Virus record (IMG/VR): IMGVR_UViG_3300038318_000351
Direction: 5' to 3' (one strand)
Origin: a virus
DNA: 64,000 nucleotides
Shown piece after piece: positions 3,782 to 58,582 of this stretch. The translations under genes were made by a program, and so were the position numbers. The notes under the pieces are model-generated. The model made no database searches. It was not told the origin of the DNA and was given only the letters and a program-made list of their open reading frames with translations. Each line of letters opens with the position of its first letter. The stretch's first letter is position 1.

Positions 3782-4530
3782 CCCTCTTCCTTAATAAAAC
3801 GAGTTAACTCATTTAAAATGTCTTTCTGACTATTATGTAATAATCCGTTCAACATCGTAACATTGCTCTCGCAGTAACGATCCCATATAAAAAATGCTAC
3901 ATGCATGACATCCTTTAAAAAATTAATTTGTTTCAATATATCTTTTAACTGATTAGAGCGATCCATCATCCCTTGCAAAACAAATTCATATTTATCGATG
4001 AAGGTAATTTCCGCAGATTTTGTAACTTGCGAAAATTCCGTTTTTGTCTTTGTAATATCCGAAATAATCGTAGTAAAGTGTGACTGAATAGTTTTCCCAG
4101 TCTTATATAAATTTATTTCGTCTATCTCGCTGTTGCCGCTGTTAAAGTTTTTCCCATACTGATTAGTTAAATCCAATTCTTCTCTCCGTAACTTATCATT
4201 ACCCTCATATATAATAGAGTGCACTTTGTTATATGCCTCTTCACCTATAATGTATTTTGGATTTTTCTTTTCCTGCAGCATCTTACAGAGAAAAACATTC
4301 AAACCTACGTCAGAAGATAAGGATAAGGCAGTCTCCATATCCTTAGTTACTTCTAATAATGCAGATAATGTAGCGGAAGATGCTAAATCCAAAAACTCTG
4401 ATACGCCGTACATATTATTAATATCAAACAAATGATGCATCGCCACTGCGTGAACAATGCACTTATCGATATATGTGTTTCCCTTAGCAATAATATTTTT
4501 AATCTTGTTCACGTCGTAATCACCTTTCAC
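3778..4530 (-). CDS. Hypothetical protein in baseplate module
   Basis: 250-aa ORF whose ends overlap both neighbours; no recognisable motif. Confidence 0.6.
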   Translation of the reverse strand: MKGDYDVNKIKNIIAKGNTYIDKCIVHAVAMHHLFDINNMYGVSEFLDLASSATLSALLEVTKDMETALSLSSDVGLNVFLCKMLQEKKNPKYIIGEEAYNKVHSIIYEGNDKLRREELDLTNQYGKNFNSGNSEIDEINLYKTGKTIQSHFTTIISDITKTKTEFSQVTKSAEITFIDKYEFVLQGMMDRSNQLKDILKQINFLKDVMHVAFFIWDRYCESNVTMLNGLLHNSQKDILNELTRFIKEEG

Positions 4531-5429
4531 TACATAATTCCAGCATCTTTCAACATTTGCTTAAATTTATCAACAACTTTTTTTGCTTCGTAATACGTCA
4601 TTCCATTATTAGTTGACGCCTGGTATAGACTGCTGGCTTTGTTATTTTTAAATTCCCCAATACCATAGAAATTACGGATAAATCTTCTCTCTGTTCTCGG
4701 AAGTTTATTGATAATAGATTCTATTCTCTGATCATTTAACTGAGATTCATACATCTCTTCCGGTGTCCGGTTATCAACATTGGAAATGTCAGATAGTGTA
4801 ATGTAGTCTGCTCCGTTGCTGCCATCACTCTGTCCAATTTGTACATTTCCAGACAGTTCACTTCTATCGAGTGCATCAATTCTTTTGATCTTATCTTCTG
4901 TTATGTTCCGTGCAGTCCTAAAATTATCTTTAATATAATGATATATTTCTGGCGAAGATGGATCTCTACCCAACTCCTGTTTAAGAAAATTTTTTGCCGT
5001 AGTCACAGTCTCATTTAATCTGGTAAGTTCATCAGATTTCCTAACCGCAAAATCTCTGTTACTATATTTTAATTTCGATAGTGCTTTTGGCAGCGCTCCG
5101 ATAATATAAGTATTCGGCTGAATTTTCTTGGTAAGATCATAATTTTTTTTGACGAGTTCACGGAACGCTTTGTTTGCTTCCTGCAAAGCTGTATCACGAT
5201 CCATGACAGAAGCAATTCCGGATTGTGATATGGAAGAATTAATAATTCCGCGGTAAGCGGATTGTAATTCTCTTAGTGCCATAAAATCATCAGTTTGCTG
5301 GTATCTACGAATCAGTTCACGCTCATGTTTTGCCTGTGGCGTCATTCCACTTTCCAAGTCTTCAATATCATTATTTTTTTTAGCAGCATATTTTTGTAGA
5401 ACCTCTTCCGCAAAAAGCATCTTATACAC
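4530..5429 (-). CDS. Phage sigma-70-family RNA polymerase sigma factor
   Basis: Region-2-like (ALRELQSAYRGII...DLTKKIQPNTYI), region 3 (KQELGRDPSSPEI), region 4 (INKLPRTERRFIRNFYGIG...YQAS..NGMT). Confidence 0.8.
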   Translation of the reverse strand: MYKMLFAEEVLQKYAAKKNNDIEDLESGMTPQAKHERELIRRYQQTDDFMALRELQSAYRGIINSSISQSGIASVMDRDTALQEANKAFRELVKKNYDLTKKIQPNTYIIGALPKALSKLKYSNRDFAVRKSDELTRLNETVTTAKNFLKQELGRDPSSPEIYHYIKDNFRTARNITEDKIKRIDALDRSELSGNVQIGQSDGSNGADYITLSDISNVDNRTPEEMYESQLNDQRIESIINKLPRTERRFIRNFYGIGEFKNNKASSLYQASTNNGMTYYEAKKVVDKFKQMLKDAGIM

Positions 5430-24362: not shown

Positions 24363-25385
24363 TTATTTTCCTTCAAGGGAACCAAAACCAACAGCTTTTG
24401 CACCATCTCTAGCCATTACGCTATCTCCGGAAGCAAAATGAATCTTGTCTCCGCCATCCTCAAAATCAAGAATTAACTTACCAACAGCCTTCTGAGAAGC
24501 AAGGTAAATGCCGAGGAACTCAAACATAAATAAACCTTTTTCAAGCTTATTTGCTGTTTCAGTTAATCTAACAGTAAGATCCTTCAGAATAGGCATACGG
24601 CCTACATACTCTGGATCAGCAAAAGCGTAAACAATATCCATAGGGATAATAGGAGAAGTAATTAACTTTACGCTACCCCAAATAGAATACTTAACGCCAG
24701 TCTCTAAGATCTCTCTTTGAGTTAACTGATCGACTTCGGAAGTTGCCCAGTCAAGAACATCATCCAATCTGGTAGGATTCATTACAAATGCAGCCAAAGG
24801 AACATTATGCTGAGAAAGAGTCTTCTTCAAATTTACAAGATGAGTCTTTCTCAAACTTGTATCTGCTGCAGTAACAATCTGACCATCATGTGTAGGAGCC
24901 TTCTTGGTACCATCACCAATTAACAATCTTTCAATAAGATCGATAATCTTAGTATCTTCGGCTTTTGCTACAGCCTGACCAGAAAGCTCTCTAACTCTTT
25001 CGAGATAGTTGTACTTCTGGGTCATTAATCTCTTTAAGCCGATTGTTACATCATCAGATGTAATTGTCATGATAGCAACGTTTACGCCATCACCCTCAAC
25101 CTGGTATCTAGGAACCTGCATATCAGCACCGTAAAATGCCGCATGTGAGTTTTGATCTTTCGGATAATATACATAATCTTCGCCATCGATAGGATGTAAT
25201 TCCTCGCTGACTACATTGTGTGCTATCAATACCTGACGTCCGAAAGCCTCGTAATCTCTTGTCTCACGAATAAACGGAGGCAATTTCTCCAAAGCGATTT
25301 TCTCCAGACCACCAGGCATATCTAATAATCTTGCAACGCTAAAATCCGCATTAGCCGTTTCTGCTGCTGTTTTAATAGCTAACAT
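24363..25385 (-). CDS. Major capsid protein (HK97 fold)
   Basis: 340 aa; PFIRETRDYEAFGRQVL, AVAKAEDTKII, AAFVMNP, IWGSVKLITSPIIP motifs; follows decoration and scaffold-like genes; terminator downstream. Confidence 0.8.
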   Translation of the reverse strand: MLAIKTAAETANADFSVARLLDMPGGLEKIALEKLPPFIRETRDYEAFGRQVLIAHNVVSEELHPIDGEDYVYYPKDQNSHAAFYGADMQVPRYQVEGDGVNVAIMTITSDDVTIGLKRLMTQKYNYLERVRELSGQAVAKAEDTKIIDLIERLLIGDGTKKAPTHDGQIVTAADTSLRKTHLVNLKKTLSQHNVPLAAFVMNPTRLDDVLDWATSEVDQLTQREILETGVKYSIWGSVKLITSPIIPMDIVYAFADPEYVGRMPILKDLTVRLTETANKLEKGLFMFEFLGIYLASQKAVGKLILDFEDGGDKIHFASGDSVMARDGAKAVGFGSLEGK

Positions 25386-34456: not shown

Positions 34457-35314
34457 GTGGGGGTTAAATTGGCCAATAGAGAATGGAAAGAAGAAGAGAT
34501 TCAGTTTCTAAAAGATAAATGGGGAGAAATGAGCATCGTGCGCATTGCAAAAAAACTTAACCGTAGTGTTGATGCGGTTAAGGTAAAAGCGTCGCGAATA
34601 GGGCTGACGAGCGCACTGAATTACATTGATGGGATTACCTTAAACCAATTAGCAAGGATATTTGATGTGAGCTATGGATGGACGATTAAAAGGATATGGA
34701 TTGATCGTCTTAATATTCCTTACAAAACAAAAATAACTGCTAGAACACAGGCTTATCGGTATATCTGCATTGATGATTTTTGGAAGTGGGCAGCAAAAAA
34801 TAAACACCGAATCAATTTTGGAAAATTGGAAAAAAACATATTGGGAAAAGAACCTGACTGGGTGGATGAAAAAAGAAAAGCCGACCAGCAGAATTTAACA
34901 TACAAAAAAACCAATATTCCGTGGTCCAAATATGAAGAGGGGTTACTTAAAACAATGCTCATTAGGTATAAATATACCTATCCTCAAATATCTAAACGCC
35001 TAGGAAGAACGGAAGGCGCTATAAAGAAACACATTGAAGATCTTGGTTGGCCAGAACGCCCCATAAAGACAGAACACAATACAAAGTGGTCAGAAAAAGA
35101 CATAGGAATTATGATTAAGATGAAAAATCTGGGCTACGGAAATAACTCCGTAGGAGACGAAATTGGGAGAACCGCAAGAGCCGTAGAAAGGAAATTAGAC
35201 TGTGTCGCCAGGGATCCAAAATATAAGTACAAACTTGCACCGCATTTAAGAAAAGAAAAATCACTTATGTTTTTGAAAATCCAAGATATCAGTTTATTCT
35301 TGCGGGACATCTAA
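34457..35314 (+). CDS. Multi-HTH (Myb-like repeat) DNA-binding protein
   Basis: Repeats WKEEE..FL...IAKKLNRS..AV, WSKYEE..L...ISKRLGRT..AI, WSEKDI...VG.EIGRT..AV. Confidence 0.75.
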   Translation: MGVKLANREWKEEEIQFLKDKWGEMSIVRIAKKLNRSVDAVKVKASRIGLTSALNYIDGITLNQLARIFDVSYGWTIKRIWIDRLNIPYKTKITARTQAYRYICIDDFWKWAAKNKHRINFGKLEKNILGKEPDWVDEKRKADQQNLTYKKTNIPWSKYEEGLLKTMLIRYKYTYPQISKRLGRTEGAIKKHIEDLGWPERPIKTEHNTKWSEKDIGIMIKMKNLGYGNNSVGDEIGRTARAVERKLDCVARDPKYKYKLAPHLRKEKSLMFLKIQDISLFLRDI

Positions 35315-36666: not shown

Positions 36667-37368
36667 ATGATTAGTGAAGGGAACGTGTGTAATATGATTG
36701 TAATGGCATTTGACTTATCTTCTGTTTGTATTGGTATTACCACGGCGGAAATGGATTTGTACGGTAATATAAAAGTGATGAGATCATGTCCTATTATCCC
36801 AAAAGAGTTTAATCCTGAAACATTGGGATATATGAAATCGAAGAAAAAACTCCCTACAAGAAACGGGGAGTTAATAAATACATATTGGCGCAGAGGAGAA
36901 ACTTCTATATCAAAAGTAGAAAAGAAGCGACGCGACAACGAGGTCAGAGCACAAAAGGATATCCGGATGTTGCAAGAGATATCTAAATCGATGAACGATT
37001 TAGTAACTGCGATTAAACCTGATCGAATTGTCGCAGAGAAAAACGAGATTTTTAATGGAATCCTGACTTCTGTATTACTGGGAAAGGTCATGGGTACCCT
37101 TGTTAGCATTACCGGCATAAACGGAATAGTTTTTGAAGAGATTAAAGTTACAGAGGCTCGCAGCATTTTTGATATTCCGAAAATACTAAATCAATTTCGT
37201 AGCGGACATACGGACAAAGAGCTGATGATAGTACCAGACGTAACGAAAAGGGCTCTCCGAGAAGAAATGGAAAGACTCTATAGTCAATACGGAATACGAT
37301 TTCAAACAGATGACGAAAGCGATTCCTGTGTGGTATTTCACTATTGGTACAACAAAAGGTATATGTAG
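36667..37368 (+). CDS. ruvC: RuvC-like Holliday junction resolvase
   Basis: MAFDLSSVCIG (D), IVAEKN (E), DDESDS (D..D) RNase H-fold acidic residues; true start may be a few codons downstream. Confidence 0.65.
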   Translation: MISEGNVCNMIVMAFDLSSVCIGITTAEMDLYGNIKVMRSCPIIPKEFNPETLGYMKSKKKLPTRNGELINTYWRRGETSISKVEKKRRDNEVRAQKDIRMLQEISKSMNDLVTAIKPDRIVAEKNEIFNGILTSVLLGKVMGTLVSITGINGIVFEEIKVTEARSIFDIPKILNQFRSGHTDKELMIVPDVTKRALREEMERLYSQYGIRFQTDDESDSCVVFHYWYNKRYM

Positions 37369-37384
37369 AAAGGGGATATTAAAA

Positions 37385-39520
37385 TTGGACAAGAAAGAAA
37401 TTGATGACGTATTTGATGCTTTACAAAATCCAATGGAACAAATTGTAAAAGACATTGATCTGTTATTTTCCGAAAATGGAATTATCAAAAGGCATAAGCA
37501 GGATTATTCACCAAGAGAGAGTCAAATCGAAGCTTCGAAGAAAATTATGGAAACACTGGTACAACGTGGTCATGCTATATTGGAAGGACCTTGTGGGTTC
37601 GGAAAAACATTTGCATATCTAGTTCCGGTTTTTATGGATATTATTCATTCTGCCGGCAGACCAAGAACGATCATTGTTACCAGTGGAATCAGTTTACAAG
37701 AACAACTGTTTTATAAGGATATCCCTTTTATTGAAAAGCTGTTTTACGAAATGTATAGTAAGCATGTGAACTTTGCCATGTTAAAGGGGAAAGGTAATTT
37801 TATTTGCAAAAATAAGATGTCAGATTTGTTTATGACAAGAGAATTTAGTGGCTCTGCAACAAGCAAAATTCTACAAATGTATAGTAATGATCAGATTAAG
37901 GATGGTGACATTTCTAATCTTGATTTTGTACCGGACTATGCTACTTCGACCGATGTTTCATGCATTAGCGAGGGAGAGTGCCTAGGATCATCGTGCGGCT
38001 TTTATGATGAGTGTTATTATCAACACGCAAAGGAAAAAGCTGCAGCATCTCAAATCGTTGTTACGAATTATCATATGCTGTTTAGTGATTTAAAAACCGA
38101 GGGTAAAATTTTAGGTGAGTACGATAATCTAATATTTGATGAAGCGCACGAAATTCCGAATATTTATCGTGATTTCCTCGAAGAAAAGATATCACTGGGT
38201 ACAATTACCTATATAAAAAATAAGATAGTAGAAGCGGGCAACAAAGACAAAAAAATCAAGGAGACTATTATATCAGGAATTAATTTTGACTGGGTATTAA
38301 GTACATCCGAAGAGTTTTTCTCCAAGGTAAAGCGGTCGCTCTTTATAAACCCGGAAAAAGATGATATAAAAATTCTTGATAGCACAATGCCCCTGTGTTT
38401 ATATCCAAAAGAACAGAAAAATTTTATAACTATGCTTGATTACCTAAACTCTAGTGCAACCAGAATTGTTGACTATTGTGATGATCAAATAGAAGCACTG
38501 AAGGAAACGTATGACGAAAGTGCTATGCCCGCAGAAGAAGTCGAAGAATGCAACCGCTATATTGGGATCTATAACAAGTTTACTGTTTTGTTAGAAAAAA
38601 TTATTAGCACAAAAACGTTGATCGAAGATTATAAGAATATTGTAAGCGACGATCATTGTGTTTACTGGGTAGAAAATAAAGAAGGGAAGATCTCAATAAA
38701 AACAAAACCCATTTCCGTGGCAGAAGAATTGTATAATAATTTCTTTGATAAGTCTGACTTGTCATGCATTATTACCTCGGCAACATTAAGTGTAAATGGT
38801 AACTTTGAATACATTAAGGATCAGCTAGGACTTAATTTATTGACTAAAGATAGTAACAAGAAGTTCACTGAATTTATTGGTAAATCACCTTTTGATTTAA
38901 AGAAACAGGAACTTTGGTATCTTCCGGAAAACTCCGTTGATGGAGACAGCAGAAATTCAAAAACTTTCCGTGAATTACTTCCAAAACAAATAACGGAGAT
39001 ATTAAAGGCTACGAACGGAGGCGCGTTATGTCTGTTTACTTCGTATTCGAATCTAAACTACGCACACAGTGCTGTTAGGGTTTCTCTGCCAGGAATGAAA
39101 ATATTTAAACAAGGTGATTTACCTAGAAATAATTTATTGGAGGCTTTTAAAAATAATAAAGATTCTGTACTCTTTGCTACAAGGTCTTTTTTTACGGGTG
39201 TAGATATTCCAGGAGACAGCTTGAGATGTTTGATCATTGATAAATTCCCTTTCCCCTCTCCCGGAGAACCTGTTATGATGAAAATACAAAAAATATTAGG
39301 GAGTAAGACATTTAACAAAGTTTATATTCCAGAAATGGTAATTACATTAAAACAAGCTGTTGGCAGAGGCGTGCGAACAGTTGATGATAAATGTGTCATT
39401 GTCGTATTAGACGGAAGAATGTCAACAGCAAGATACAAAGGACAAATATTTAACAGTTTTCCTTATGAAAAGACAGGTACCAGAGATATTAAAGAAGTAG
39501 AAAAATTCTTAATAAAATAA
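37385..39520 (+). CDS. dinG: DinG/YoaA-family Fe-S DNA helicase
   Basis: Q motif PRESQ, EGPCGFGKT, KGKGNFIC, four Fe-S Cys, VVTNY, DEAH, TSATL, LFTSY, KLPF-like KFPF, QAVGRGVR; TTG at 37385 after AGGGG. Confidence 0.9.
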   Translation: MDKKEIDDVFDALQNPMEQIVKDIDLLFSENGIIKRHKQDYSPRESQIEASKKIMETLVQRGHAILEGPCGFGKTFAYLVPVFMDIIHSAGRPRTIIVTSGISLQEQLFYKDIPFIEKLFYEMYSKHVNFAMLKGKGNFICKNKMSDLFMTREFSGSATSKILQMYSNDQIKDGDISNLDFVPDYATSTDVSCISEGECLGSSCGFYDECYYQHAKEKAAASQIVVTNYHMLFSDLKTEGKILGEYDNLIFDEAHEIPNIYRDFLEEKISLGTITYIKNKIVEAGNKDKKIKETIISGINFDWVLSTSEEFFSKVKRSLFINPEKDDIKILDSTMPLCLYPKEQKNFITMLDYLNSSATRIVDYCDDQIEALKETYDESAMPAEEVEECNRYIGIYNKFTVLLEKIISTKTLIEDYKNIVSDDHCVYWVENKEGKISIKTKPISVAEELYNNFFDKSDLSCIITSATLSVNGNFEYIKDQLGLNLLTKDSNKKFTEFIGKSPFDLKKQELWYLPENSVDGDSRNSKTFRELLPKQITEILKATNGGALCLFTSYSNLNYAHSAVRVSLPGMKIFKQGDLPRNNLLEAFKNNKDSVLFATRSFFTGVDIPGDSLRCLIIDKFPFPSPGEPVMMKIQKILGSKTFNKVYIPEMVITLKQAVGRGVRTVDDKCVIVVLDGRMSTARYKGQIFNSFPYEKTGTRDIKEVEKFLIK

Positions 39521-39549
39521 AAATACCACCGGGTTTCCCGGTGGTATTT
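39521..39549. terminator. Bidirectional terminator between convergent genes
   Basis: AAATACCACCGGG-TTT-CCCGGTGGTATTT. Confidence 0.8.
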
Positions 39550-39862
39550 ACTTTTGTCTTATATTTTTTATTCTATTTGAAAACTCCCTATTAAATGACA
39601 TCTTGGGCAGCGTTCGACTTGGCCTTACTACGTTTCGCTGTAACTGGAAATCCCATGCGGGTTTCTTGGCTACTCGTTCCACTCTCATTGTACCGAGGTA
39701 CTGAATACCAACATTGTGCCCGGAGCACATTTGTTCCATAATCGTATCAATATAGCAGTTGATATGCTTTTGTACCTCTTCTTCACTACCGCCTGTTTTA
39801 TTGCATACCATTTTAATGATCTGCTTGTGACTAATTTTTTTTACCGCGCTCTTACTTTCCAT
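39548..39862 (-). CDS. Divergent HU/IHF-like protein
   Basis: HKQIIKMV...VGIQYLGTMRV..VAKKPAWDFQ....RPSRTLPKMSF fits the HU fold. Confidence 0.7.
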   Translation of the reverse strand: MESKSAVKKISHKQIIKMVCNKTGGSEEEVQKHINCYIDTIMEQMCSGHNVGIQYLGTMRVERVAKKPAWDFQLQRNVVRPSRTLPKMSFNREFSNRIKNIRQK

Positions 39863-40438: not shown

Positions 40439-40468
40439 ATTATAGAATATTTCTTATTCTCTTGTCAA
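40439..40468 (-). promoter_or_regulatory. Consensus sigmaA promoter
   Basis: TTGACA-18 bp-TATAAT. Confidence 0.8.
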
Positions 40469-40508: not shown

Positions 40509-43500
40509 CTACTTCTTGCTGAATAGATTAAACATTCTAGTTGCAATACCATTCTTTTTATCTGGTGCAATCTTAAATCCCTCGCCTATATTTAATAGTT
40601 TGCCTGCCATTTGTCTGGATCGTGGATCATTTAATTTGTCTACCTGGCCAATGGCTGCTCCCCTTGCAAGTTGTGTCATGACATCTTTATGCCCAAGGTT
40701 ACTAAACCAATTTTCGTGTCCGCTGGTAGCAATCGTATCCTTGGAGTGCAAAGTATTTTCAAAGTTAATCAATTTCGGATATACCTTGATGTCTTTATAT
40801 CCTGCATTTTTTAATGCAACCAAAGTGGCATCGGATATAACTTCTCCCTTAGCAATAATTGTTTTACCTTTTTTGTCCTTGTAAGTTTCTCCGGATTTGT
40901 GTCCCGTAACTGCTGCTGCATTATTAAGAGATAACTTCTTTACACTGTAGGGCGTGGCATTTTCTGTATTCCATTTTACAAGAATATTGCGGTCTACTTC
41001 CTCACCCTTCATATAAGGAGAATCGCCCGGGTCAATTACTTTAGCCTTTGAAGTAATCTTGCCAATAATAGTTTCCATATGTCTACGATCCATTGCACCT
41101 GGGCTGGTAGCTTTAGATATCGCATAATCCATGGAATCAGTTAAATATTCCTGGACATAATCTCTAGCAGTATCCTGGTCAAAAGCATTCGCCTTTAACT
41201 TATAGAGTTTCCTCGGATCAGCATTAGTAAACACAACATTCTCATTTGCTTCATTAAGCAGATCGTTAACATCACCATAAGTAAGGAAATCACCCTTAAT
41301 CACTTTGTCTCCAACAGAAACCTTCAATTTCTGGCTCTTGCCATCAACATGAGGAATAATTTGCGGCTTGTTATCAATGTAAATAGTATCTTTCGCAACT
41401 CCATTTTCGATCCTTGTTATCGTGCCACTATTATTAGCAAGTGCTGCAGGGTTTACTTTGTTCTTTCCGAGATTTAAGATTTCTTCAATTCTTGGTATTC
41501 CTAATGTTGCAGAGGAACCAGTTCCACCAGAGTGGAACGTATTAAGCGTCATCTGCATAACTGGTTCGCCCATTGCCTGAGATGCTAATACGCCGATCGG
41601 AGTACCTTCCTTTGGAAGTTGAATTGTGCCGGGCATTGCACCATAGCATTGTTGACAAACGCCGCCAGTAGATTTGCATTTTAATGGAGATCTTACTTTT
41701 ACCTGTTTAATTGATGTGTCTTTGTAAATTCTGTTGCGGATTTCTTTTGTAATCATCTGGTTTCTCTTTACAAGTAAGGTCCCTTTTTCGCTTACCAAAT
41801 CTTCGGCTGCAATTCTACCCTCAAGACCAAGGTTATTTTTATTCATGTATATACCATCTCTAGTACGGCAATCTTTCTCTACAATAATAACATCTTGAAC
41901 AGCGGACCAAACTTCACGAGTAATTTGACCTGGTTCTCTTGTTGAAATAGATCTATCCGACATACCTTTTCTTGAATCCTTGCCATGAATCCAATACTCT
42001 TCAGGGGATAAGCCATCAAAATGAGAGTGTTTAATAGGCGAAATTAGTTTTTTGTTTATATCCATACCAACACCAGTAGTTACTAACATTCTTCTAATTT
42101 GGCCTGCGTTAGCTCGTGCACCAGACGCCATCATCATTTGAATTGGATTATCACTATCAAGTATTTTGCCGTTTTTAAGATCATTTTCGATTTCTTTTTC
42201 AGCTCGTTGCCATCCAGTAATAAGTGCTTCTTCCGTATCTCCAAGTTCTTTTTGTGCTTCTTTTACATGCTTGTCGAAAATTGTTTCTGCATTATCTACT
42301 TTCTTAAAGTCTGTCGCACTAATAGAAATACCTGATCTCGTTGAAGCTTCAAATCCCAATTGTTTGATATCATCCATGATATTACTGATTTGTATCTTTG
42401 AAATATTTTTCCAGCCATCGGCCTCTGCGTCCGCATACATCTGTCGCATCGTCTGGCCAATTTGTGACTTACCCCAAACTTGCTTCAAATTACGATATTT
42501 TTTCGGAAGTAAGTAGTTAAACATTGCTTGACCAGCGGTTACGTTATTCATGTCTCCAATGCTAACTTTTGTACGAGCTTTTATATTGCCTTCTCGGTAG
42601 TCTTTTCTAAGTTTTTTATAATCTGTATAATTGATTCCTTTACCCTCTGGTTTATCCCAGTGAGAAGTTAAGTAGTATACACCTAAAACCATCTCGTGAC
42701 GCAGATTAATAATCATTTTCCCGTTGGTGGGATTAATTAAATTATCTGACGGCATCATTATCCTCTTCGCTTCATCTTTAGCCCTTTCTGTTACTGGAAC
42801 GTGAGATGCCATTGTATCTCCATCAAAATCAGCATTAAAACCCTCTACTACCAAAGGATTAAGATGAATACTACGCACTACTTCGCCATCTTCGGTTTCC
42901 TTGATAATAGGATTAAATGCCATAATATTAAATTTGTGGAGAGAAGGCTGACGATTAAGCAACACGGGCCTGTCTTTTGCCACTTGTCTAATTACATACT
43001 TCGTGTCATCGTCAAGTGCCTTAATCTTGTTTTTTGCCTCCGGAACGCTTGCTGCAAACCCCTCGTCAATTAACTCTTTTACAACAAACGGCTTATACAA
43101 ATCACGAGCCATATCCATAGGAATACTCGCTTCGTTTATCTTGAGGTTAGGATCTACACCGATTACAGAACGTCCAGAGAAATCTACCCGTTTACTAAGT
43201 AGCTGTCCACGGACAATACCCTCTTTGCCGCCTATACTATCTTTAATACCTTTTAAGTCTCGCTTAGTTCTCTTGTCTCTTTTTGTAACATGGCCACTTA
43301 AGTTCATCATAGCCTTATATATATTCCCGGTACCTCGTGCTGCGCTAACAGCGTCTTCTACCTGATATAAGTCACCTGCTTCAGCAATATCCTTTACCGG
43401 ATTATTTGCTTTAATCAGCTCACCATACAGTGTGTTTAAATCATCAATGATGTACTTCTTTTTATCATCTGTCTTACTTACCGGTCTTAAATAAGATGGA

Positions 43501-46500
43501 GCAACTGGTACATAGTGCATCATAAGATCAGATGCTTCCATCTTATTATTGTTTAACATAGTAAGGACCTTAACTTTTTTGTATGCCTTATCAATTTTAG
43601 TTCCTTGTGCTGCATTTAATTCTTTTTTTGCCTTTTCAAGCTCTTCCCTTACATCAATTTTATCCATTATGCTCTGAAGAGCCTGACCACCAACCTGCCA
43701 AAGAATGTATTTACCTTGTGAATTTAATTTATCAATTTTTTCAGGGGAAACCAAATCACCAGGTTTTAATCCCGCTTCTATCATATCCTTTTTATGTTTT
43801 TCCCTAATACTAGGATCCAAGTTGTTAAATGGCGCATATTTATCTGGGTCACTAATCATTACCTTTTTACCAGTAGACAAAGCTTGCAGATCATCCGTCT
43901 TCATACCGGTTAATAAAGAGTATGGGTTATAAGATTTATTTTGCATAAATACTGGATTTGGCAATGGAGCACCTAATTTAATATAGCCCCATTTTTTTCT
44001 TTCATCCAGAGTACCAGGTTCACCAAATATTCTTGGATCTGCCAATCCATCTTTTACTGGTTCATCTTCCTTTATTACTGTTTTCTTCTTTGACTTTGAA
44101 GCTTCATCGCCTTCTTTTGATGATGTTTTTTTCTTTGTCTTTGAAGCCTCGCCCGTAATATCTTTGGCGTTATACATCTTAGGCGCTTTTACCTCTGCAT
44201 TTTTTCCAACCATCTTGATAAATTCAGAAGATTTAATAGGCTGAATCATCATGCTATCAAAAACATCATCAAATGTACCTACTTCTTTCCCATTATATAA
44301 AGGCTTTACATTTAACCCTAATACTTTCAAGGAATCACTCAAAACCTTCAAGGATTCTGGCGTTGCGGGTACATCTAAGCTATCTAAGTTACCGGTGGCA
44401 ATTGCATTAAACATAGCAATTCTCTGTTGAGCATCTCCACCACCGTCCGATTTGATGGTAGAGTTCTCTAGGATATTCCAAACAGCTTGATGACCTTGTA
44501 ATGCCCTCATTTCCATTTCGCCAAGACTTTGTGGATTATGCTTTTCGCCTGCCGCAGATCCGACAACTTTTGCCGGCATAAAGTTTTTCCTATTTGGACT
44601 GGTTTCCATGTTAGACCTAGCCTGTATTTTATCATCAGCTTTATGTTTCAATTTCATGATATACATATTACCTACAGTAACAGGGTTTTCAGCAGGAATT
44701 TCTTTAATCGTGCCATCTGGATTTTTTTCTTTTAGCGTAACTTTCATTTTTCCATCCGGATAACCAATTTCTTTAAGTGCTTTCATCACTTTATCTTTTT
44801 CTTTATGATTGAAGTTAGTAATAGCATATGGCTGACCTTTTTTTTCTGCAGCTAATCCTGCATGTACCTCGAGTAACTGTCCAACGTTCTTACGTGAGGG
44901 AACAGCAAGAGGAGAAAACATTATGTCAATCTCGCTTCCATCTTCTGCAACGGGCATTTCATCATCGTCTAAAATTTTGGTAATAGTACCCTTATTACCA
45001 TGACGTCCAGAAATTTTATCACCAATCTTAAGTGGCTTAGAATTTATAAGCGTAATAACAATCTTCTGTTTATTTGATCCATCTGGATTATTAACCACGG
45101 TAACCCTTTTAACTTCGCCCTCAACGTAACTGGAACTATCGATACTGAAATAATTTTTCTTGTAATTTTGGTTTTTATCCGCAGACAAAATAGCATCTTC
45201 TATACTATCTCCAGCATCCTGAATAACCGGCTTTAAAGTAGCGACTAATACATCACCACGTTTTACATGCTGACCAACTTTAATAATTCCGTCATTATCT
45301 AAACGCTGCCTAAGGGAAGGGTCTCTATCGTAAGCGATAAGTTCTTCCATAACATTGCTGCCACGTCCACCCTTGTGCGTGGTAGGAATGTTAATCTCTT
45401 GCTCTTCCATTCCCTCTGTAGCCATACGTTTCGCAAGAGAGCGGCTTACCACAATGCCATCTTCGTAGTTGTAGCCTTTATATGGAAGAAAAGCGACTTT
45501 TGCATTAAGACCCAGAGCAAGTTTTCCGTCTTTTGTCTGCCATCCTTCTGCTAGCATATCGCCTTTTTTTACCTTGTCACCAGGTTTAACCTTGACTTCG
45601 TTGTTGATAAAGCTTTGATTAAGCGGATAATATTCATAATATGGTTTAATGTAAGTCTTTCCATCATTACCTTTAATAGTAATTTTACCTTTGTCAACGT
45701 TCTCAACTACGCCAACTACGTCAGCACGCACCGGTTTACCATATTGTTCTCCGATATATTCATCGTAAGTAATTCCTTTATCAGGATCCATTAAAGTAGT
45801 GACAAGTGGAGCTTCTCGGTTAACAATATTAATTGCCTGTTTTTGCATATTCGATCCCATAAGTGCTCTATTACCATCATCATGAGCAACAAATGGAATC
45901 ATGTTTGCAGCATACCCCATAACATCTCTAGGACTTTTATCAATATAATCAATTTCTGATACAGAAACTTCCTTAACTTTCCCGGCTCGTCTTGCCGGAA
46001 CCTTTGCTTTAAGAAAAGTGATGTTGTCTTTATTATTACTAACATAGCGAGAATCGTTGAACGCTATTGTTTTGTGATATTCTTCATCTGGAGATAGATA
46101 AAACTCATTTGATTTTATTTTCTTCGCAACTCCATCACGCACTTTTAAAACTGGGGCTTTAATTGTTCGGTCTTCAATTTTAGCATCTTGTGTTAAGTGT
46201 TCAACTAATCCAATATTTGTGGATTCGGGAGTTTCGATAGGATCAATTCTGTTCATGGAGTTTGCGGAAAGATTTCTCGCAGAAAATTCATTTCTTGCAG
46301 AATCAGGACTTAAACCACCTTCGCCTAATTGAGTAATTTTCTTTGTCATTCCTGTCATAAACAATGGATTTGTTTCTTCCGGAGTTTGAACAAGAGAACT
46401 ACTGCTCATAAATTTACCTAGTGATTTTCCAATCTTTGTGGTGGCTCTGATATCAGTATGTCGAATATCTTTTCTGCCACTATCCAATACCATTTGTGCA

Positions 46501-47462
46501 TCGTTAACAAAGTCCATCCAATCTTTCTCAATTTGTTCTAATATAAAATCATTATCATCAAAGACATCTTTAAATCGAAGATCGTCTTTATCATCTTCTT
46601 CCACCTGATCTTGAAATACGGCAAAAGTTTTTGTAACAGCGCCAGCAATCATCTTTGGAGAAAGATAGTCTTCCTTTAACCCTAAGTTTGCCTGAACAAC
46701 CGGAATCCCTGTTCCGAATTTTGCATTTTTCTGAAGAAAATCAAACAATTCCGTTTTTAATTCGGTAGGAGTTTTATCAGTTGGAACAGTTCCAATAACT
46801 GCAGTATATAAATCATTTATGCCCTTTAGATTCTTATTACCGTACTTTTCAAAAAGCTGATCCGATACAATCCCATTTCCAAGCATCTTTTTAATATCAG
46901 GATCTCTAAACCCTAGAATACGTAAGAAGTTAATACCGTTAAAATTATATGTTTTATTCCCTCTTTTAATAGAAACAGTAAATTCATTTTTAGACGGTTT
47001 GTATTCTACGGTCATCTGTGGAACATATTCCCCGCTAGAAATAGAAGAGTTGTCTACCATGATATTTGTTTTAACATCACCCAAGCTAGATGTTTTGTTT
47101 GTGTAAATACCAGGTTTTAACCTCATCTGATTAAGAATATTTTTCTCGGTTCCATTAACGATATAAGTATCTCTTTCTGTTATAACCGGAACAGGTATCA
47201 GATTTTTCTTTATATTGCTTTTAGCAATAATCTTATCATCAGCATCTCTTATTATAATTCTGCCACTGATATATCCTTCTAAATTCCCATTCTTCGAATA
47301 CTTCATTTGAAGCTGTTTATCTATATCATCAACAGCTTTAGGAGCTGTAAATTCAATATCTTCTACTGCAATCGTCCGTCCATCTTTACCCTTAATAGGA
47401 GTTGTACGGTGAATCAAATCTATAATGGAATTTTTTAAATCTTCTGTTTTTTGACTAACCAT
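40509..47462 (-). CDS. rpoBC: Single-chain beta-beta' DNA-directed RNA polymerase
   Basis: beta motifs PIETPE, RALMGSNMQKQA, GDKISGRHGNKG, LGEMEMRAL; beta' motifs LSKRVDFSGRSVI, LLNRQPSLH, NADFDGD, SQAMGEPVMQMTLNTFH, RRHME; one continuous ORF. Confidence 0.95.
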   Translation of the reverse strand: MVSQKTEDLKNSIIDLIHRTTPIKGKDGRTIAVEDIEFTAPKAVDDIDKQLQMKYSKNGNLEGYISGRIIIRDADDKIIAKSNIKKNLIPVPVITERDTYIVNGTEKNILNQMRLKPGIYTNKTSSLGDVKTNIMVDNSSISSGEYVPQMTVEYKPSKNEFTVSIKRGNKTYNFNGINFLRILGFRDPDIKKMLGNGIVSDQLFEKYGNKNLKGINDLYTAVIGTVPTDKTPTELKTELFDFLQKNAKFGTGIPVVQANLGLKEDYLSPKMIAGAVTKTFAVFQDQVEEDDKDDLRFKDVFDDNDFILEQIEKDWMDFVNDAQMVLDSGRKDIRHTDIRATTKIGKSLGKFMSSSSLVQTPEETNPLFMTGMTKKITQLGEGGLSPDSARNEFSARNLSANSMNRIDPIETPESTNIGLVEHLTQDAKIEDRTIKAPVLKVRDGVAKKIKSNEFYLSPDEEYHKTIAFNDSRYVSNNKDNITFLKAKVPARRAGKVKEVSVSEIDYIDKSPRDVMGYAANMIPFVAHDDGNRALMGSNMQKQAINIVNREAPLVTTLMDPDKGITYDEYIGEQYGKPVRADVVGVVENVDKGKITIKGNDGKTYIKPYYEYYPLNQSFINNEVKVKPGDKVKKGDMLAEGWQTKDGKLALGLNAKVAFLPYKGYNYEDGIVVSRSLAKRMATEGMEEQEINIPTTHKGGRGSNVMEELIAYDRDPSLRQRLDNDGIIKVGQHVKRGDVLVATLKPVIQDAGDSIEDAILSADKNQNYKKNYFSIDSSSYVEGEVKRVTVVNNPDGSNKQKIVITLINSKPLKIGDKISGRHGNKGTITKILDDDEMPVAEDGSEIDIMFSPLAVPSRKNVGQLLEVHAGLAAEKKGQPYAITNFNHKEKDKVMKALKEIGYPDGKMKVTLKEKNPDGTIKEIPAENPVTVGNMYIMKLKHKADDKIQARSNMETSPNRKNFMPAKVVGSAAGEKHNPQSLGEMEMRALQGHQAVWNILENSTIKSDGGGDAQQRIAMFNAIATGNLDSLDVPATPESLKVLSDSLKVLGLNVKPLYNGKEVGTFDDVFDSMMIQPIKSSEFIKMVGKNAEVKAPKMYNAKDITGEASKTKKKTSSKEGDEASKSKKKTVIKEDEPVKDGLADPRIFGEPGTLDERKKWGYIKLGAPLPNPVFMQNKSYNPYSLLTGMKTDDLQALSTGKKVMISDPDKYAPFNNLDPSIREKHKKDMIEAGLKPGDLVSPEKIDKLNSQGKYILWQVGGQALQSIMDKIDVREELEKAKKELNAAQGTKIDKAYKKVKVLTMLNNNKMEASDLMMHYVPVAPSYLRPVSKTDDKKKYIIDDLNTLYGELIKANNPVKDIAEAGDLYQVEDAVSAARGTGNIYKAMMNLSGHVTKRDKRTKRDLKGIKDSIGGKEGIVRGQLLSKRVDFSGRSVIGVDPNLKINEASIPMDMARDLYKPFVVKELIDEGFAASVPEAKNKIKALDDDTKYVIRQVAKDRPVLLNRQPSLHKFNIMAFNPIIKETEDGEVVRSIHLNPLVVEGFNADFDGDTMASHVPVTERAKDEAKRIMMPSDNLINPTNGKMIINLRHEMVLGVYYLTSHWDKPEGKGINYTDYKKLRKDYREGNIKARTKVSIGDMNNVTAGQAMFNYLLPKKYRNLKQVWGKSQIGQTMRQMYADAEADGWKNISKIQISNIMDDIKQLGFEASTRSGISISATDFKKVDNAETIFDKHVKEAQKELGDTEEALITGWQRAEKEIENDLKNGKILDSDNPIQMMMASGARANAGQIRRMLVTTGVGMDINKKLISPIKHSHFDGLSPEEYWIHGKDSRKGMSDRSISTREPGQITREVWSAVQDVIIVEKDCRTRDGIYMNKNNLGLEGRIAAEDLVSEKGTLLVKRNQMITKEIRNRIYKDTSIKQVKVRSPLKCKSTGGVCQQCYGAMPGTIQLPKEGTPIGVLASQAMGEPVMQMTLNTFHSGGTGSSATLGIPRIEEILNLGKNKVNPAALANNSGTITRIENGVAKDTIYIDNKPQIIPHVDGKSQKLKVSVGDKVIKGDFLTYGDVNDLLNEANENVVFTNADPRKLYKLKANAFDQDTARDYVQEYLTDSMDYAISKATSPGAMDRRHMETIIGKITSKAKVIDPGDSPYMKGEEVDRNILVKWNTENATPYSVKKLSLNNAAAVTGHKSGETYKDKKGKTIIAKGEVISDATLVALKNAGYKDIKVYPKLINFENTLHSKDTIATSGHENWFSNLGHKDVMTQLARGAAIGQVDKLNDPRSRQMAGKLLNIGEGFKIAPDKKNGIATRMFNLFSKK

Positions 47463-47468
47463 TAGTTA

Positions 47469-47636
47469 TCATCCCTCCTTACTGTGATCTTCCCATTTTA
47501 AATACAGGAATATAAATCCATCTTTAGGACATGCAGTTTTTAATTCATCTACAACAACATAATCCTCGTTGTTGTAGATTTCCTCAGCTAAACGCTCTTC
47601 TCCTGGTAATATAAATACTTTAACCCTGATCTTCAT
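47469..47636 (-). CDS. Small hypothetical protein (55 aa) between portal and RNAP
   Basis: Manual translation MKIRVKVFILPGEERLAEEIYNNEDYVVVDELKTACPKDGFIFLYLKWEDHSKEG; AAGGTGG RBS; fills the gap exactly. Confidence 0.65.
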   Translation of the reverse strand: MKIRVKVFILPGEERLAEEIYNNEDYVVVDELKTACPKDGFIFLYLKWEDHSKEG

Positions 47637-47653
47637 ATAATAAAAACACCACC

Positions 47654-49609
47654 TTACTTTAAGCTATCTCTTCTAGGAGGTAATTTTTCTGGCATTGGTC
47701 TCATATCAATTTGCGCTTTTTTCTTTGCATCCTCCGACTGTTCCAATAATTGGATTGCTTTTCTTATCTGATTTTGGACATTAGCAGGAAATGAAGCGAT
47801 TGGTTTATCACGATAAGCGCGTGGTAGTTTTGCAATTTGCATAGCGATCTTTTTAATCTCAGGAGGCATGTTATTAATGAAGTCTTCAGCTTGACTTTGC
47901 TGTTGTATCATTGCTTCTTGTTCTTGTACAGGCTGTTGATTAACTTGTTCTTGTTCTGGTCTAGGCTGCTGATTAACCTGTTCCTGTACAGGCTGCTCTT
48001 GCTGATCTACGTTTTGTTGTTGTGGCATAACTCCTTCAACTTGTTCGTCAACAGGTTCGCCAGACTGTGGCATTAATTGCTGCGCTTGATTTTGTAAAGC
48101 CGCATTCATTTCAACCTGTTTTTGTTGCAATTTAAGCTGCAGTTCCATTTCATTCATTTGACATTCCATTTTTTTCATGAGTACTTTGCTCTCTAGTTCC
48201 ACTGCAGTTAAAGCTTCACGCTCAATTTCCTCTCTCATCTTTTCGGGATCGATGCCTATGGTTTTCCACATAAATTCATCTGAGCACTTACCAGCACCAT
48301 TAAGCTGAATAATTAATTGTTTCTGCTGAACATCATCCTGCATCTTTAAATCAGTCATCTTAGCAGTTACTAATTGGTCGTCATCATTTTCATTAACCCA
48401 TTCTTTGCGAGCTTGGGCCATTCTCCTGATGACAAAATTCTGTATAAAATCTTTTAACAAAACGCGATAAGTAATAAAATTATTCTCTAAGATTTTCAAA
48501 GAAATGGAACTACCGGAATAACTTATTCCGCCGAATATGAACTCTCTCGGTACATTCATCCCAGCAAGAATTTCTTCCTGTACCTGCTGAATTTCCGGAG
48601 TTAGCAACAATGCTCTACCCTGCCCCCCGACACTTAACATGTTTACCGGGACAGGAGAAACAACTTTGTAATTGGGGTCTCTCACAGATTTCATTAGTTC
48701 TTGTGCAAAATCATTTGCTACCTTATTCCAGTCTGCTTCCGGGTTAAAATCATCTGTTTTCTGGAGATAATATATTCTCATAGGTACAATATGTTCTCGC
48801 GCAATTGCTTCCTGTGCCTGCCTAAGCGTATTACGATACATTAACAATTTAAGAACATTTGCAACAACAGGGGTACCCCACACTTGGTTATCGCCAAGGG
48901 AATCTGTTGCTCTTGAAAAATGATAAACATTATTTGGATTTAATATAACCGATTTTTTATCAATAACAGCTTTTTTTATCATTTCTGGTATTTTGTCATA
49001 TTCCGCTTTTGGTTTTTTTGTTCGCACAATTCTTGCAATGCCATAAGGTATCTCCCATTTATATATCTTTTCCTGTGTTGCGGGATTATAATCGATCGTT
49101 ATCTTGGAAGGATCCAAGCGTACCATGTGCTTCCATTCTTTTTGACCAGTTGCCGGATTGGTGTACATTTCCCCGAATACAAAACAATTTCCGTAAAGGT
49201 AATAATCGATACCTATTTCGATTAGCAACTTATGGATATTTAAAGTTTTATGAATTACTCTGTTATAAGTTTTCAGAGTATCACTATCATCACGGCCTTT
49301 TTTATCCTTCACATCTTCCAGATAAACTTCCGTAATGGGGAAAACCGCCAAAGCATTAATCGCTCCGGCAACTAGCGGATCAAACATATAGAAATATTTA
49401 CACCAGCGGAATATTTCTTGTGATGTTTCCGGAATTTTTGTATCTGAAAGATTAAGAAAAGGGGATGGATAAGGGTCCTGAGTATTCCCTCTAAAATTTG
49501 CTACCTTAATCATTCCTTTAGCTTCTTCCTTTGCCTCACTCAATATTTGCTCTTTTTGTTTTGCCGAAGTAGCAACTTGAATTAAAGGATCTCTCATTTC
49601 GTCTGACAT
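47654..49609 (-). CDS. Portal protein with Gln-rich C-terminal extension
   Basis: KYFYMFDPLVAGAI, YYLYGNCFV, LDPSKITI, VYHFSR...WGTPVV, EEILAGMNVPREFIFGG. Confidence 0.8.
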   Translation of the reverse strand: MSDEMRDPLIQVATSAKQKEQILSEAKEEAKGMIKVANFRGNTQDPYPSPFLNLSDTKIPETSQEIFRWCKYFYMFDPLVAGAINALAVFPITEVYLEDVKDKKGRDDSDTLKTYNRVIHKTLNIHKLLIEIGIDYYLYGNCFVFGEMYTNPATGQKEWKHMVRLDPSKITIDYNPATQEKIYKWEIPYGIARIVRTKKPKAEYDKIPEMIKKAVIDKKSVILNPNNVYHFSRATDSLGDNQVWGTPVVANVLKLLMYRNTLRQAQEAIAREHIVPMRIYYLQKTDDFNPEADWNKVANDFAQELMKSVRDPNYKVVSPVPVNMLSVGGQGRALLLTPEIQQVQEEILAGMNVPREFIFGGISYSGSSISLKILENNFITYRVLLKDFIQNFVIRRMAQARKEWVNENDDDQLVTAKMTDLKMQDDVQQKQLIIQLNGAGKCSDEFMWKTIGIDPEKMREEIEREALTAVELESKVLMKKMECQMNEMELQLKLQQKQVEMNAALQNQAQQLMPQSGEPVDEQVEGVMPQQQNVDQQEQPVQEQVNQQPRPEQEQVNQQPVQEQEAMIQQQSQAEDFINNMPPEIKKIAMQIAKLPRAYRDKPIASFPANVQNQIRKAIQLLEQSEDAKKKAQIDMRPMPEKLPPRRDSLK

Positions 49610-56931: not shown

Positions 56932-56960
56932 AAGAAAGTAGGGCAATGCCCTACTTTCTT
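56932..56960. terminator. Bidirectional terminator (GGGCAATGCCC core)
   Basis: AAGAAAGTAGGGC-AAT-GCCCTACTTTCTT between convergent genes. Confidence 0.75.
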
Positions 56961-58582
56961 TACACGTTTACTCCATAAACATTTGAGAATTCAACCGCTT
57001 TTCCGCCGCCAGATCCTTTACCATATAGTTTAGAGGCGAGATAAGCATAAACTCCGGAATGCAATCCATCATCTGGCTGTCCTTCTGGATGAGTATACAT
57101 AAGATCCTCTGACCTCCCGTTCATTGACTTACGATATTCGGCAAGCTCCACTAAGTGATGATCAAACAACCAAGAATACTTTGCTTTATCGGCTCCTGGC
57201 CATAAGATATCTTGGCTATGTATTGCGGTAACATACTGTTGCATTACTTCGGTACGATTTACAACCCACATACATTTCTGCGGGTTGTATTTTGCTTTTT
57301 GATTCTGGTTAAAAGAATAGTAACATGCCGCAACACGATTTCCAAAAATTGATCTCATTTTTTTGTATTGTACAAATCCAAAACCCCAGTCAACTATTGC
57401 ATACGCAATTTTAAACAATTTCATAAGGTTACATATATCTCTTAATTGCCAATCTGGATCAATCTCTTCTCCTGTGTCATATCTCTTAACGTACAGCAGT
57501 TGAAATTTGCCTGCGGAATTATAAGAATATATGCTTACTATGGTATATGATTTTTCTCCTGTACCCCAATCAACGCCCATAAAGTTTTTAGTGTTGGCAA
57601 ATTCTCGTTCGGCTCTTGGATACATTTTTAAAGTGTTATTACTAATACTTGCAAGTACTAAAGAATTAAATGGCTTTTCGGCATTTTCATAACTACGACC
57701 TAATACCTCGTTATAAAATTTATCTGGTGCATAGGTTGTATATTTGCTCCAAATATCATCTGCCTGAATCCATGGAACCATTAATTGCGATATTCGAAAA
57801 CCTTTTAATTTTTTACCCGGTTGAAGTTCATACCAAAAGCCGTTAATTATGCTTTCTTTTGGTAATTCTTTTTTACATTTGCAGCACACAAACTTCGTCG
57901 GCTCAAGATTCTTGATGCCCATAATCTGATGCGTTCCACAATGGGGGCATTTGATTATCCACTCCGACTGAGTGGATCTATCCCAATATTGCTGTATTGT
58001 GTTGCTGTACGTCTTAGGTGTTCCAGTGTACCATGTTATACGCATTCTGGCTCCAGCATCTAATGCATGGGCCTGTGTCTCTTTTATAACGGGAATTGCG
58101 TCAATATGAATATCCTGAATTTCATCGCCCCACACGCCATTTACCGTAATACCACGAATATTGTCAGCCATCCCAAAACAGTGTTTAAAATAATTAACGG
58201 ATCCATTGCGGAACTCCTTAAATTGCACCGCCTGCGAATCATGGGTTCCTATAAAATTGTCTCTTACAACTTGATCTTGACTGTATTCATACAATTTTCC
58301 GATTCTCTCTTTGGAAAATTCACGCACCTGCGATGTTAATGGTGCGAAATACAGCGCTTTAAAATGAGGCACTAATAAAGTATACGACCCCATCATAGTA
58401 GAATTGGTGGTAGATTTTTCTACTTGCCTACCCGACATAATCATGCCTTCCTCGATGTTTGCATCGTAGATGGGTTTTAAATAATGACGATTTGTTAAGC
58501 GAAAAGGACGACCATCTAATTGAAACGTGGCTTCGGCAAACACTGAAGGTATGATTTGGGCTATTTTTGACACATCGCTCAT
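56960..58582 (-). CDS. terL: Terminase large subunit
   Basis: RHYLKPIY adenine-binding region, GRQVEKST Walker A, VWGDEIQD Walker B, GTPKT, CPHC/CCKC zinc ribbon, nuclease MGVDWG and DDGLHS. Confidence 0.85.
   Translation of the reverse strand: MSDVSKIAQIIPSVFAEATFQLDGRPFRLTNRHYLKPIYDANIEEGMIMSGRQVEKSTTNSTMMGSYTLLVPHFKALYFAPLTSQVREFSKERIGKLYEYSQDQVVRDNFIGTHDSQAVQFKEFRNGSVNYFKHCFGMADNIRGITVNGVWGDEIQDIHIDAIPVIKETQAHALDAGARMRITWYTGTPKTYSNTIQQYWDRSTQSEWIIKCPHCGTHQIMGIKNLEPTKFVCCKCKKELPKESIINGFWYELQPGKKLKGFRISQLMVPWIQADDIWSKYTTYAPDKFYNEVLGRSYENAEKPFNSLVLASISNNTLKMYPRAEREFANTKNFMGVDWGTGEKSYTIVSIYSYNSAGKFQLLYVKRYDTGEEIDPDWQLRDICNLMKLFKIAYAIVDWGFGFVQYKKMRSIFGNRVAACYYSFNQNQKAKYNPQKCMWVVNRTEVMQQYVTAIHSQDILWPGADKAKYSWLFDHHLVELAEYRKSMNGRSEDLMYTHPEGQPDDGLHSGVYAYLASKLYGKGSGGGKAVEFSNVYGVNV

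Follow-up and report, generated by a model that had tools for sequence, protein, structure and literature searches.

A single-chain beta-beta' RNA polymerase encoded beside the portal gene of an uncultured phage, and the phage clade in which it is placed

We analyzed a 64,000-nucleotide stretch of viral DNA (the window) from the IMG/VR record IMGVR_UViG_3300038318_000351, in which one gene on the minus strand encodes an RNA polymerase of bacterial type with its beta and beta' parts in a single chain. The gene was delimited by translation of its open reading frame (ORF), by Pfam matches and by alignment; its parts are listed here with positions in the window and in amino acids (aa) of the product.

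40509-47462, minus strand: fused beta-beta' RNA polymerase gene, 2317 aa, ~258 kDa (ORF translation, Pfam, alignment)
44292-47462, minus strand: beta module, aa 1-1057 (alignment, Pfam)
44268-44291, minus strand: beta-beta' junction GKEVGTFD, ~8 residues (alignment to bacterial sequences)
40512-44267, minus strand: beta' module, aa 1066-2317 (alignment, Pfam)
43989-44024, minus strand: site of the missing beta' N-terminal zinc-binding domain (Escherichia coli residues 65-92, CxC...CxxC), a clean deletion (alignment)
43281-43448, minus strand: beta' clamp helices, aa 1339-1394, the predicted dock for sigma region 2 (alignment, complex model)

The 2317-aa ORF has no internal stop, and the identical protein was found on six contigs from separate samples, one of them a fermentation metagenome; the fused ORF is therefore not an assembly accident. 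Pfam identified the beta domains Rpb2_3, Rpb2_45, Rpb2_6 (1.3e-68) and Rpb2_7 at aa 361-1053, followed by the beta' domains Rpb1_1 to Rpb1_5 in full order at aa 1126-2152; the motif of the beta double-psi barrel, GDKxxGxHGxKG, is also present. We aligned the chain and members of its family to E. coli rpoB/rpoC and to the Staphylococcus aureus rpoBC region. In this alignment, the last beta-homologous residue is 1057 (...LGLNVKPLYN) and the first beta'-homologous residue is approximately 1066 (FDDVF...), and the junction of ~8 residues between them is conserved across the family of the polymerase. Based on NCBIfam, the best models are the fused RpoBC equivalogs NF007172 and NF011417 (Helicobacter and Wolbachia), but the scores (671 bits versus a cut-off of 5372, and 599 versus 4632, respectively) fall far below the curated cut-offs, and the protein is thus not assigned to either equivalog.

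A previous interpretation made from the letters of the window (the sequence-only reading) had described complete beta and beta' motif sets in one chain, joined by a linker of ~12 aa near 44250-44310 that lacks a K-x-A site. The single chain and the shortness of the linker are both borne out; however, the linker measures ~8 residues at 44268-44291 (the peptide quoted in that reading corresponds to 44238-44321), and the beta' set is not complete, as its N-terminal zinc domain is deleted. No K-x-A tripeptide occurs in residues 1040-1080, the nearest being at residue 1087, and across the whole chain such tripeptides, proposed prohead-protease sites, are rarer than composition predicts (9 observed versus 16.5 expected).

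Within beta', the NADFDGD Mg site (42816-42836, minus strand) and the bridge helix (41895-42005, minus strand) are conserved relative to E. coli and S. aureus. The trigger loop (41460-41597, minus strand) is likewise conserved and lacks the SI3 insertion, and the second zinc site (Zn2; 41646-41870, minus strand) is intact; the whole chain has only four cysteines, which are exactly the Zn2 ligands. Judged from these alignments, the catalytic machinery of the phage polymerase is intact. Other parts of the chain have changed. Cluster I of the beta rifampicin (Rif) pocket (aa 351-383) carries the substitutions H526 to M, S531 to T and D516 to E, and transcription by this enzyme would for that reason probably be insensitive to rifampicin. 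The beta flap tip (aa 741-771) is weakly conserved, the E. coli sigma contacts R275, R278 and R281 of the clamp helices correspond to A, P and D in the phage chain, and a Lys/Ser-rich insert of 25 residues lies inside the beta' N terminus (aa 1111-1135).

Megablast of the window against phage records returned no match. At the protein level, our search identified fused relatives of ~2250-2340 aa that form a continuum from 74% to ~27% identity, on contigs of up to 170 kb. An alignment search of IMG/VR recovered 125 stretches, 80 of which were kept, and loci were then checked ORF by ORF. In 66 of 82 loci, one open frame contains the motifs of the beta barrel, the beta' Mg site and Zn2; the other 16 are mostly single long frames that fail one motif pattern or are cut by a contig end. 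The fused, portal-linked clade comprises at least 75 IMG/VR loci, and full-text literature searches found no description of the fused form. For Rhizobium phage TM30, a single-protein search of IMG/VR gave nothing, whereas an alignment search gave matches.

Cultured phages also belong to this polymerase clade, namely, Salmonella phage Arash (Gp206 and Gp216, with sigma factor Gp10; OQ632216; PMC10585845) and Vibrio phages D69, D148 and D181. Identity between the Arash group, whose hosts are Gram-negative, and the window polymerase is ~27-30%. In Arash and D69, the chain is cut within beta' near residue 1636-1690, yielding pieces of ~1525 and ~606 aa with other genes between them; however, the beta-beta' junction of Arash is also covalent, with Gp206 covering query residues 94-1636, and the split inside beta' is secondary. 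The Arash publication labels the two pieces simply beta and beta' and mentions no fusion (PMC10585845).

A tree of beta sequences concatenated with those of beta' (84 rows, 1258 columns, LG+G4) resolved three well-separated groups, with support from the Shimodaira-Hasegawa-like approximate likelihood ratio test (SH-aLRT): the fused clade (40 rows, SH-aLRT 99), the published metagenomic phage clade mReC (11 rows, 100), and bacteria together with fusions from the Candidate Phyla Radiation (CPR; 32 rows, 100). The fused clade includes Arash, D69 and two other split variants, and the window's own family is a subclade with support of 100. A second tree (LG+C20+F+G4, 47 rows, 1004 columns) separated the fused, mReC and bacterial groups with support of 100, 99 and 100, respectively. 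The beta' zinc ribbon is gone from every fused-clade member examined; it is kept in bacteria, in CPR fusions, in set B of mReC and in Rhizobium phage TM30. These comparisons place the window polymerase in a large, previously undescribed clade of portal-linked, single-chain phage polymerases, and the trees indicate that the fusion is old and conserved in a phage clade that stands apart from both bacteria and mReC.

Cellular RpoBC fusions (Helicobacter, Wolbachia, and CPR members such as Paceibacteria) have the same beta-then-beta' order in one chain. Unlike the phage chain, however, CPR fusions fall inside the bacterial clade and retain the zinc ribbon as well as canonical Rif and sigma-contact residues. 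Because of these differences, and because the phage polymerase scores below the RpoBC cut-offs, the cellular and phage fusions are, on sequence grounds, independent events. An apparent rpoB/rpoC fusion of Collinsella in tblastn was discarded, as it consists of two adjacent ORFs.

The polymerase gene lies just downstream of the portal gene on the same strand, as the sequence-only reading had stated, with one small ORF between them. Features of this packaging and head region are as follows.

47469-47636, minus strand: 55-aa ORF between portal and polymerase, conserved in nine close loci
47654-49609, minus strand: portal protein, 651 aa (PHROG 16240, E 7e-22), directly upstream of the polymerase
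56960-58582, minus strand: large terminase (GpA_ATPase, PF05876; PHROG 675), marking the packaging/head module that contains the polymerase gene
24363-25385, minus strand: major head protein (PHROG 2522; no Pfam match)

The window also encodes a prohead protease, sheath, baseplate J and a cell-wall hydrolase. The portal gene, the 55-aa ORF and the polymerase gene are tightly packed, with overlapping or adjacent signals; the ribosome-binding site of the polymerase (AAGGAGG) lies inside the last codons of the 55-aa ORF, an arrangement of translational coupling. On the coding strand, no terminator-like site was found between the upstream head genes and the polymerase. As in the window, 66 of 82 loci, those of Arash and D69 among them, have a homologous portal gene directly upstream of the polymerase. 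Arash and D69 also carry small ORFs at the same position and therefore share with the window the order of portal, small ORF and polymerase.

The window is collinear over its full length, at 65-77% nucleotide identity, with IMGVR_UViG_3300042922_000850 (hereafter G001), a record of 166,758 bp with terminal repeats that CheckV rates as 100% complete. This complete relative contains one polymerase copy only. The contig to which the window belongs measures 121,868 bp, of which we examined 6018-121868 (115.9 kb) through the gene tables of called genes.

We consider it probable that the product of the fused gene is the catalytic core of the single RNA polymerase of this phage, a two-barrel enzyme of bacterial type with the C terminus of beta joined directly to the N terminus of beta'. 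With comparable, moderate confidence, we favor the reading that this polymerase depends on sigma, dispenses with alpha and is probably delivered by the virion. The covalent link would take over the role of the alpha dimer in assembly, and the chain plus a phage sigma factor would form the holoenzyme, with the 299-aa sigma factor described below docking in the usual way on the diverged clamp helices. The enzyme would be synthesized alongside the head proteins, packed into the capsid and injected together with the DNA, after which phage transcription would start without the host polymerase. An enzyme produced at the same time as late head proteins can act in early transcription only by being carried over in the particle. 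A stronger proposal, which we hold tentatively and with some doubt, is that the chain and one phage sigma factor constitute a self-sufficient holoenzyme without alpha or omega, that polymerase and sigma are packed and injected together, and that the lineage is independent of host polymerase from the start of infection; if true, this would be the first case of a bacterial-type core enzyme that is encoded by one gene and yet works with sigma factors.

Two genes of the window bear on sigma dependence.

4530-5429, minus strand: full-length, divergent member of the sigma-70 family (299 aa), encoded in the baseplate module; counterpart of Arash Gp10
34457-35314, plus strand: 285-aa regulator with a helix-turn-helix of sigma region-4 type (Sigma70_r4_2, 4.9e-8; PHROG 323)

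The 299-aa protein has no match in Pfam or PHROGs. It aligns to the Arash sigma factor Gp10 with 26% identity (pairwise E 6e-6), a weak but specific match, and in hhalign its family profile matched a sigma profile at 95.9% over 199 columns. An alignment-based structure model reached a mean predicted local distance difference test (pLDDT) score of 73, and nearly all of its top 50 PDB matches in Foldseek are sigma factors; a single-sequence fold (pLDDT 48) was too poor and was not used. Each of the five family-level relatives among the 28 long records described below also has this protein. In the complete relative G003 (C1:57303-58100), the homologue is broken by one TGA and one TAG, which could reflect a pseudogene, sequencing error or recoding. 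As in Arash, where the sigma gene lies inside the structural-gene block beside a cell-wall hydrolase, the sigma gene of the window phage is located among structural genes.

A complex model of the 299-aa sigma factor with beta' residues 1130-1560 scored 0.62, whereas the best of three controls scored 0.00; 58 of 80 solved complexes and 2 of 110 mismatched pairs reach that mark. Contact agreement between runs was at least 58%, and partner pLDDT was at least 69. The modeled interface sets sigma residues 47-94 on clamp helices 1348-1380. Because both the pair and the interface are textbook cases, this pass may partly reflect likeness to solved holoenzymes.

A canonical sigma factor of 203 aa (Sigma70_r2 and r4) is encoded on the same contig ~3 kb past the right end of the window (L268:14974-15585). 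It is adjoined by a gene for a 1049-aa SNF2-family helicase (L268:16925-20074), which recalls the RapA-like helicases linked to jumbo-phage polymerases. The 285-aa regulator, as judged from its domain match, is possibly a further transcription factor.

Data from phage particles are consistent with delivery by the virion. The most detected protein of Arash particles was Gp206, and both Gp216 and the sigma factor Gp10 were present (PMC10585845). Particles of YerA41 also hold polymerase and sigma (PMC7354516). We considered YerA41 as a clade member and rejected it, as it forms a long branch outside the fused clade and has the order beta' then beta; it is used here as an analogy only.

The best-surviving alternative, which we nonetheless rate as rather unlikely, is that the polymerase is not in the virion: early genes, with promoters of sigma-A type, would be transcribed by the host polymerase, and middle and late transcription would pass to the phage enzyme once infection has produced it. 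One site in the window fits this scheme.

40439-40468, minus strand: perfect TTGACA-18-TATAAT promoter-like site (12/12 match to the sigma-70 consensus), located after the polymerase stop codon and before a 130-aa gene

Further near-consensus sigma-70 sites occur in the region, and the several sigma-like genes of the phage could equally redirect the core enzyme of the host. However, the number of promoter-like sites does not exceed that in shuffled sequence (54 found versus 60.7 expected), and we therefore claim no promoter class. Against this alternative, moreover, the portal/head operon includes the polymerase gene and has no terminator ahead of it, 66 of 82 loci across a very deep clade retain this placement, and polymerase and sigma are abundant in Arash particles.

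The sequence-only reading had also noted that no alpha gene was in view, and the precomputed Pfam tables of every called gene in the window agree in showing none. Among the called genes of the examined 115.9 kb of the contig, there was no match to an alpha or omega family. We searched all six frames of G001 with the profiles RNA_pol_A_bac, RNA_pol_L, RNA_pol_A_CTD and Rpb6 and found nothing at E values up to 10; as a positive control, all four profiles were detected in 14 of 14 control genomes. A wider search covered 28 records of ≥100 kb with related polymerases, 14 of which are ≥90% complete. In these 28 long relatives, PF01000 and PF01192 were each found in none, and PF01193 exceeded its cut-off in none, with one chance-level match of 11.9 bits; PF03118 gave no match in the complete relative G001. 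An ordinary rpoA elsewhere in the genome had been named beforehand as evidence that would speak against the proposed enzyme; as none was found in the searched part of the contig or in the 28 long relatives, the reading stands on this point.

To our knowledge, all cellular polymerases use alpha-like subunits. These subunits are seen as a universal assembly platform, and the sole exceptions known to us are the enzymes of phiKZ/AR9 type, which are highly diverged and fragmented. It is conceivable, although in our judgment unlikely, that the window encodes a genuine phage polymerase that still requires the host alpha dimer, and perhaps omega, as its assembly platform, like the RpoBC fusion of Helicobacter. 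In favor of this, the enzyme is full-length and of bacterial type, with all Pfam beta and beta' domains; CPR fusions with an equally short junction occur in genomes that keep rpoA; and the Arash proteomics were blind to host alpha. However, the partner surfaces that can be checked (clamp-helix sigma contacts, flap tip and zinc ribbon) have strongly diverged, and an enzyme injected from the virion would need to find host alpha after entry. In addition, phage polymerases of phiKZ and AR9 type already function without alpha (PMC7598289).

Several points weigh against an alpha-less enzyme delivered by the virion. Lack of an alpha gene is no proof that the enzyme does without alpha. The contig of 121.9 kb is probably incomplete when compared with the 166.8-kb relative, and its leftmost 6 kb fall outside the examined range. 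Packaging in the virion has been reported for a distant cousin only (Arash, ~29% identity). Arash particles were purified by sucrose gradient only, and mass spectrometry led to 116 proteins being called structural (PMC10585845); given this purification and this number, carry-over is possible. The same proteomics used a phage-only database (PMC10585845), so host alpha could not have been detected. Lastly, a perfect promoter of host type is located just downstream of the polymerase gene, and part of the genome may therefore be transcribed by the host polymerase.

The sequence-only reading had considered it probable that the phage belongs to the mReC clade or its vicinity. Like the window phage, mReC members are uncultured and tailed, and their cellular-type beta and beta' subunits branch outside all bacteria; in an approximately unbiased (AU) test, a topology in which the fused clade and mReC are held together was not rejected (p = 0.51). 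A sister relation, which stays compatible with the data, is thus neither shown nor rejected. Membership itself is very improbable, and we exclude it because the two groups form separate clades in both trees (mReC support, 99-100). The enzymes also differ in organization. We verified two mReC contigs in IMG/VR, 3300017989 (149,482 bp) and 3300005915 (152,423 bp); both encode beta' (~900 aa) and then beta (~1000 aa), with subunits smaller than those of the window polymerase. A second set was resolved in 3300017989 (1005 and 1371 aa), and at least a second beta gene (1348 aa) was found in 3300005915. The mReC phages have two-gene enzymes in beta'-then-beta order, often in two sets, with a zinc ribbon in one set (set B). 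In Supplementary Data 2 of the mReC publication, beta and beta' are different ORFs in every entry shown, and the publication makes no mention of fusion, alpha or sigma (PMC7481178). Based on the contigs that we checked, the mReC polymerase genes are not linked to a portal gene, in contrast to the window polymerase. A comparison of Pfam and PHROG assignments separates the structural genes as well: the mReC capsid (PF07068/VOG11186, T4-like) and terminase (PF03237/VOG01069) differ from those of the window, whose terminase is PF05876 and whose head protein has no Pfam match and is therefore not of the Gp23 family reported for mReC. In one of the verified contigs (IMGVR_UViG_3300017989_000062; L262, L264, L266), both sets have the order beta' then beta and one lacks the zinc ribbon, which is reminiscent of the paired virion and non-virion polymerases of jumbo phages.

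Recent capture of a cellular rpoBC gene, or its joining to phage DNA by misassembly, is favored by nothing more than general similarity to bacterial rpoB/rpoC and can for practical purposes be dismissed, given that the best cellular match has 31% identity (one genome for each of 185,579 species), that the bacterial clade (support, 100) excludes the polymerase, that the identical protein occurs on six contigs, and that a complete 166.8-kb relative with terminal repeats is collinear with the window. The 31% match excludes recent bacterial capture and, together with the trees, shows that the enzyme is not nested in a bacterial genus; such nesting had been named in the sequence-only reading as evidence against it.

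Single-chain two-barrel polymerases of the YonO type are minimal enzymes; the window chain, unlike them, retains almost all domains of the bacterial set. YonO, the crAss-like virion polymerase, the P23-45 polymerase fused to a tape-measure protein and the N4 virion polymerase are all single polypeptides, and several are ejected from the virion to start transcription. YonO and the crAss-like enzymes are described as so diverged that beta and beta' sequence models fail to recognize them (PMC7481178), and the N4 enzyme is a member of the T7-like polymerase family, which is unrelated (PMC7824862). The jumbo-phage enzymes of phiKZ/AR9 type are multisubunit polymerases without alpha or omega, and one set is carried in the virion (PMC7598289). 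However, their beta and beta' parts are divided among four or five polypeptides, with two sets per genome, whereas the window phage has one chain, one set (as seen in G001) and sigma-family partners.

The clade described here constitutes a very large natural family, with cultured members infecting Salmonella and Vibrio, in which a near-complete bacterial-type enzyme is made as one polypeptide, without an alpha or omega gene beside it and with sigma-family partners. With one gene and one sigma factor, the need for alpha becomes directly testable, and a single-gene polymerase of bacterial type is potentially programmable. The published mReC survey, which lists two-gene enzymes only, leaves out this phage polymerase lineage of sister scale.

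The phage probably infects a member of the Bacillota (Clostridia). Four observations hint at this: a close relative was binned with a Herbinix metagenome-assembled genome; the contig carries a SpoIIID-like gene of 86 aa near the 203-aa sigma gene (L270:4731-4991); the phage encodes CHAP, SH3_3 and PG_binding lysins; and one source is a fermentation metagenome. A separate contig classified as viral, IMGVR_UViG_3300029491_000146 (L237), has rpoB/rpoC genes that nest inside Bacillota and represents either host contamination or recent capture.

Several other genes and features were observed near the polymerase gene. Beyond the 130-aa gene downstream of the polymerase lies an HU-like gene (39548-39862), and a strong bidirectional hairpin is located at 39521-39549. 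An XPD/DinG-type helicase is encoded on the plus strand at 37310-39520; in Arash, the helicase Gp217 directly follows the beta' piece and is also found in particles. Elsewhere on the contig are genes for a DNA polymerase III alpha subunit (1180 aa; L274:1-2247), a Toprim primase-helicase (1067 aa; L274:10891-14094) and a radical-SAM protein (448 aa; L271:17205-18551). Several fused relatives are 2500-3000 aa long and contain intein/homing-endonuclease domains (PF14528, PF05204) within the chain (P0010, P0016, P0099, P0117, P0120; L018:5950-14385; L094:5917-14874), and homing endonucleases adjoin the split polymerase genes of Vibrio phages D148 and D181.

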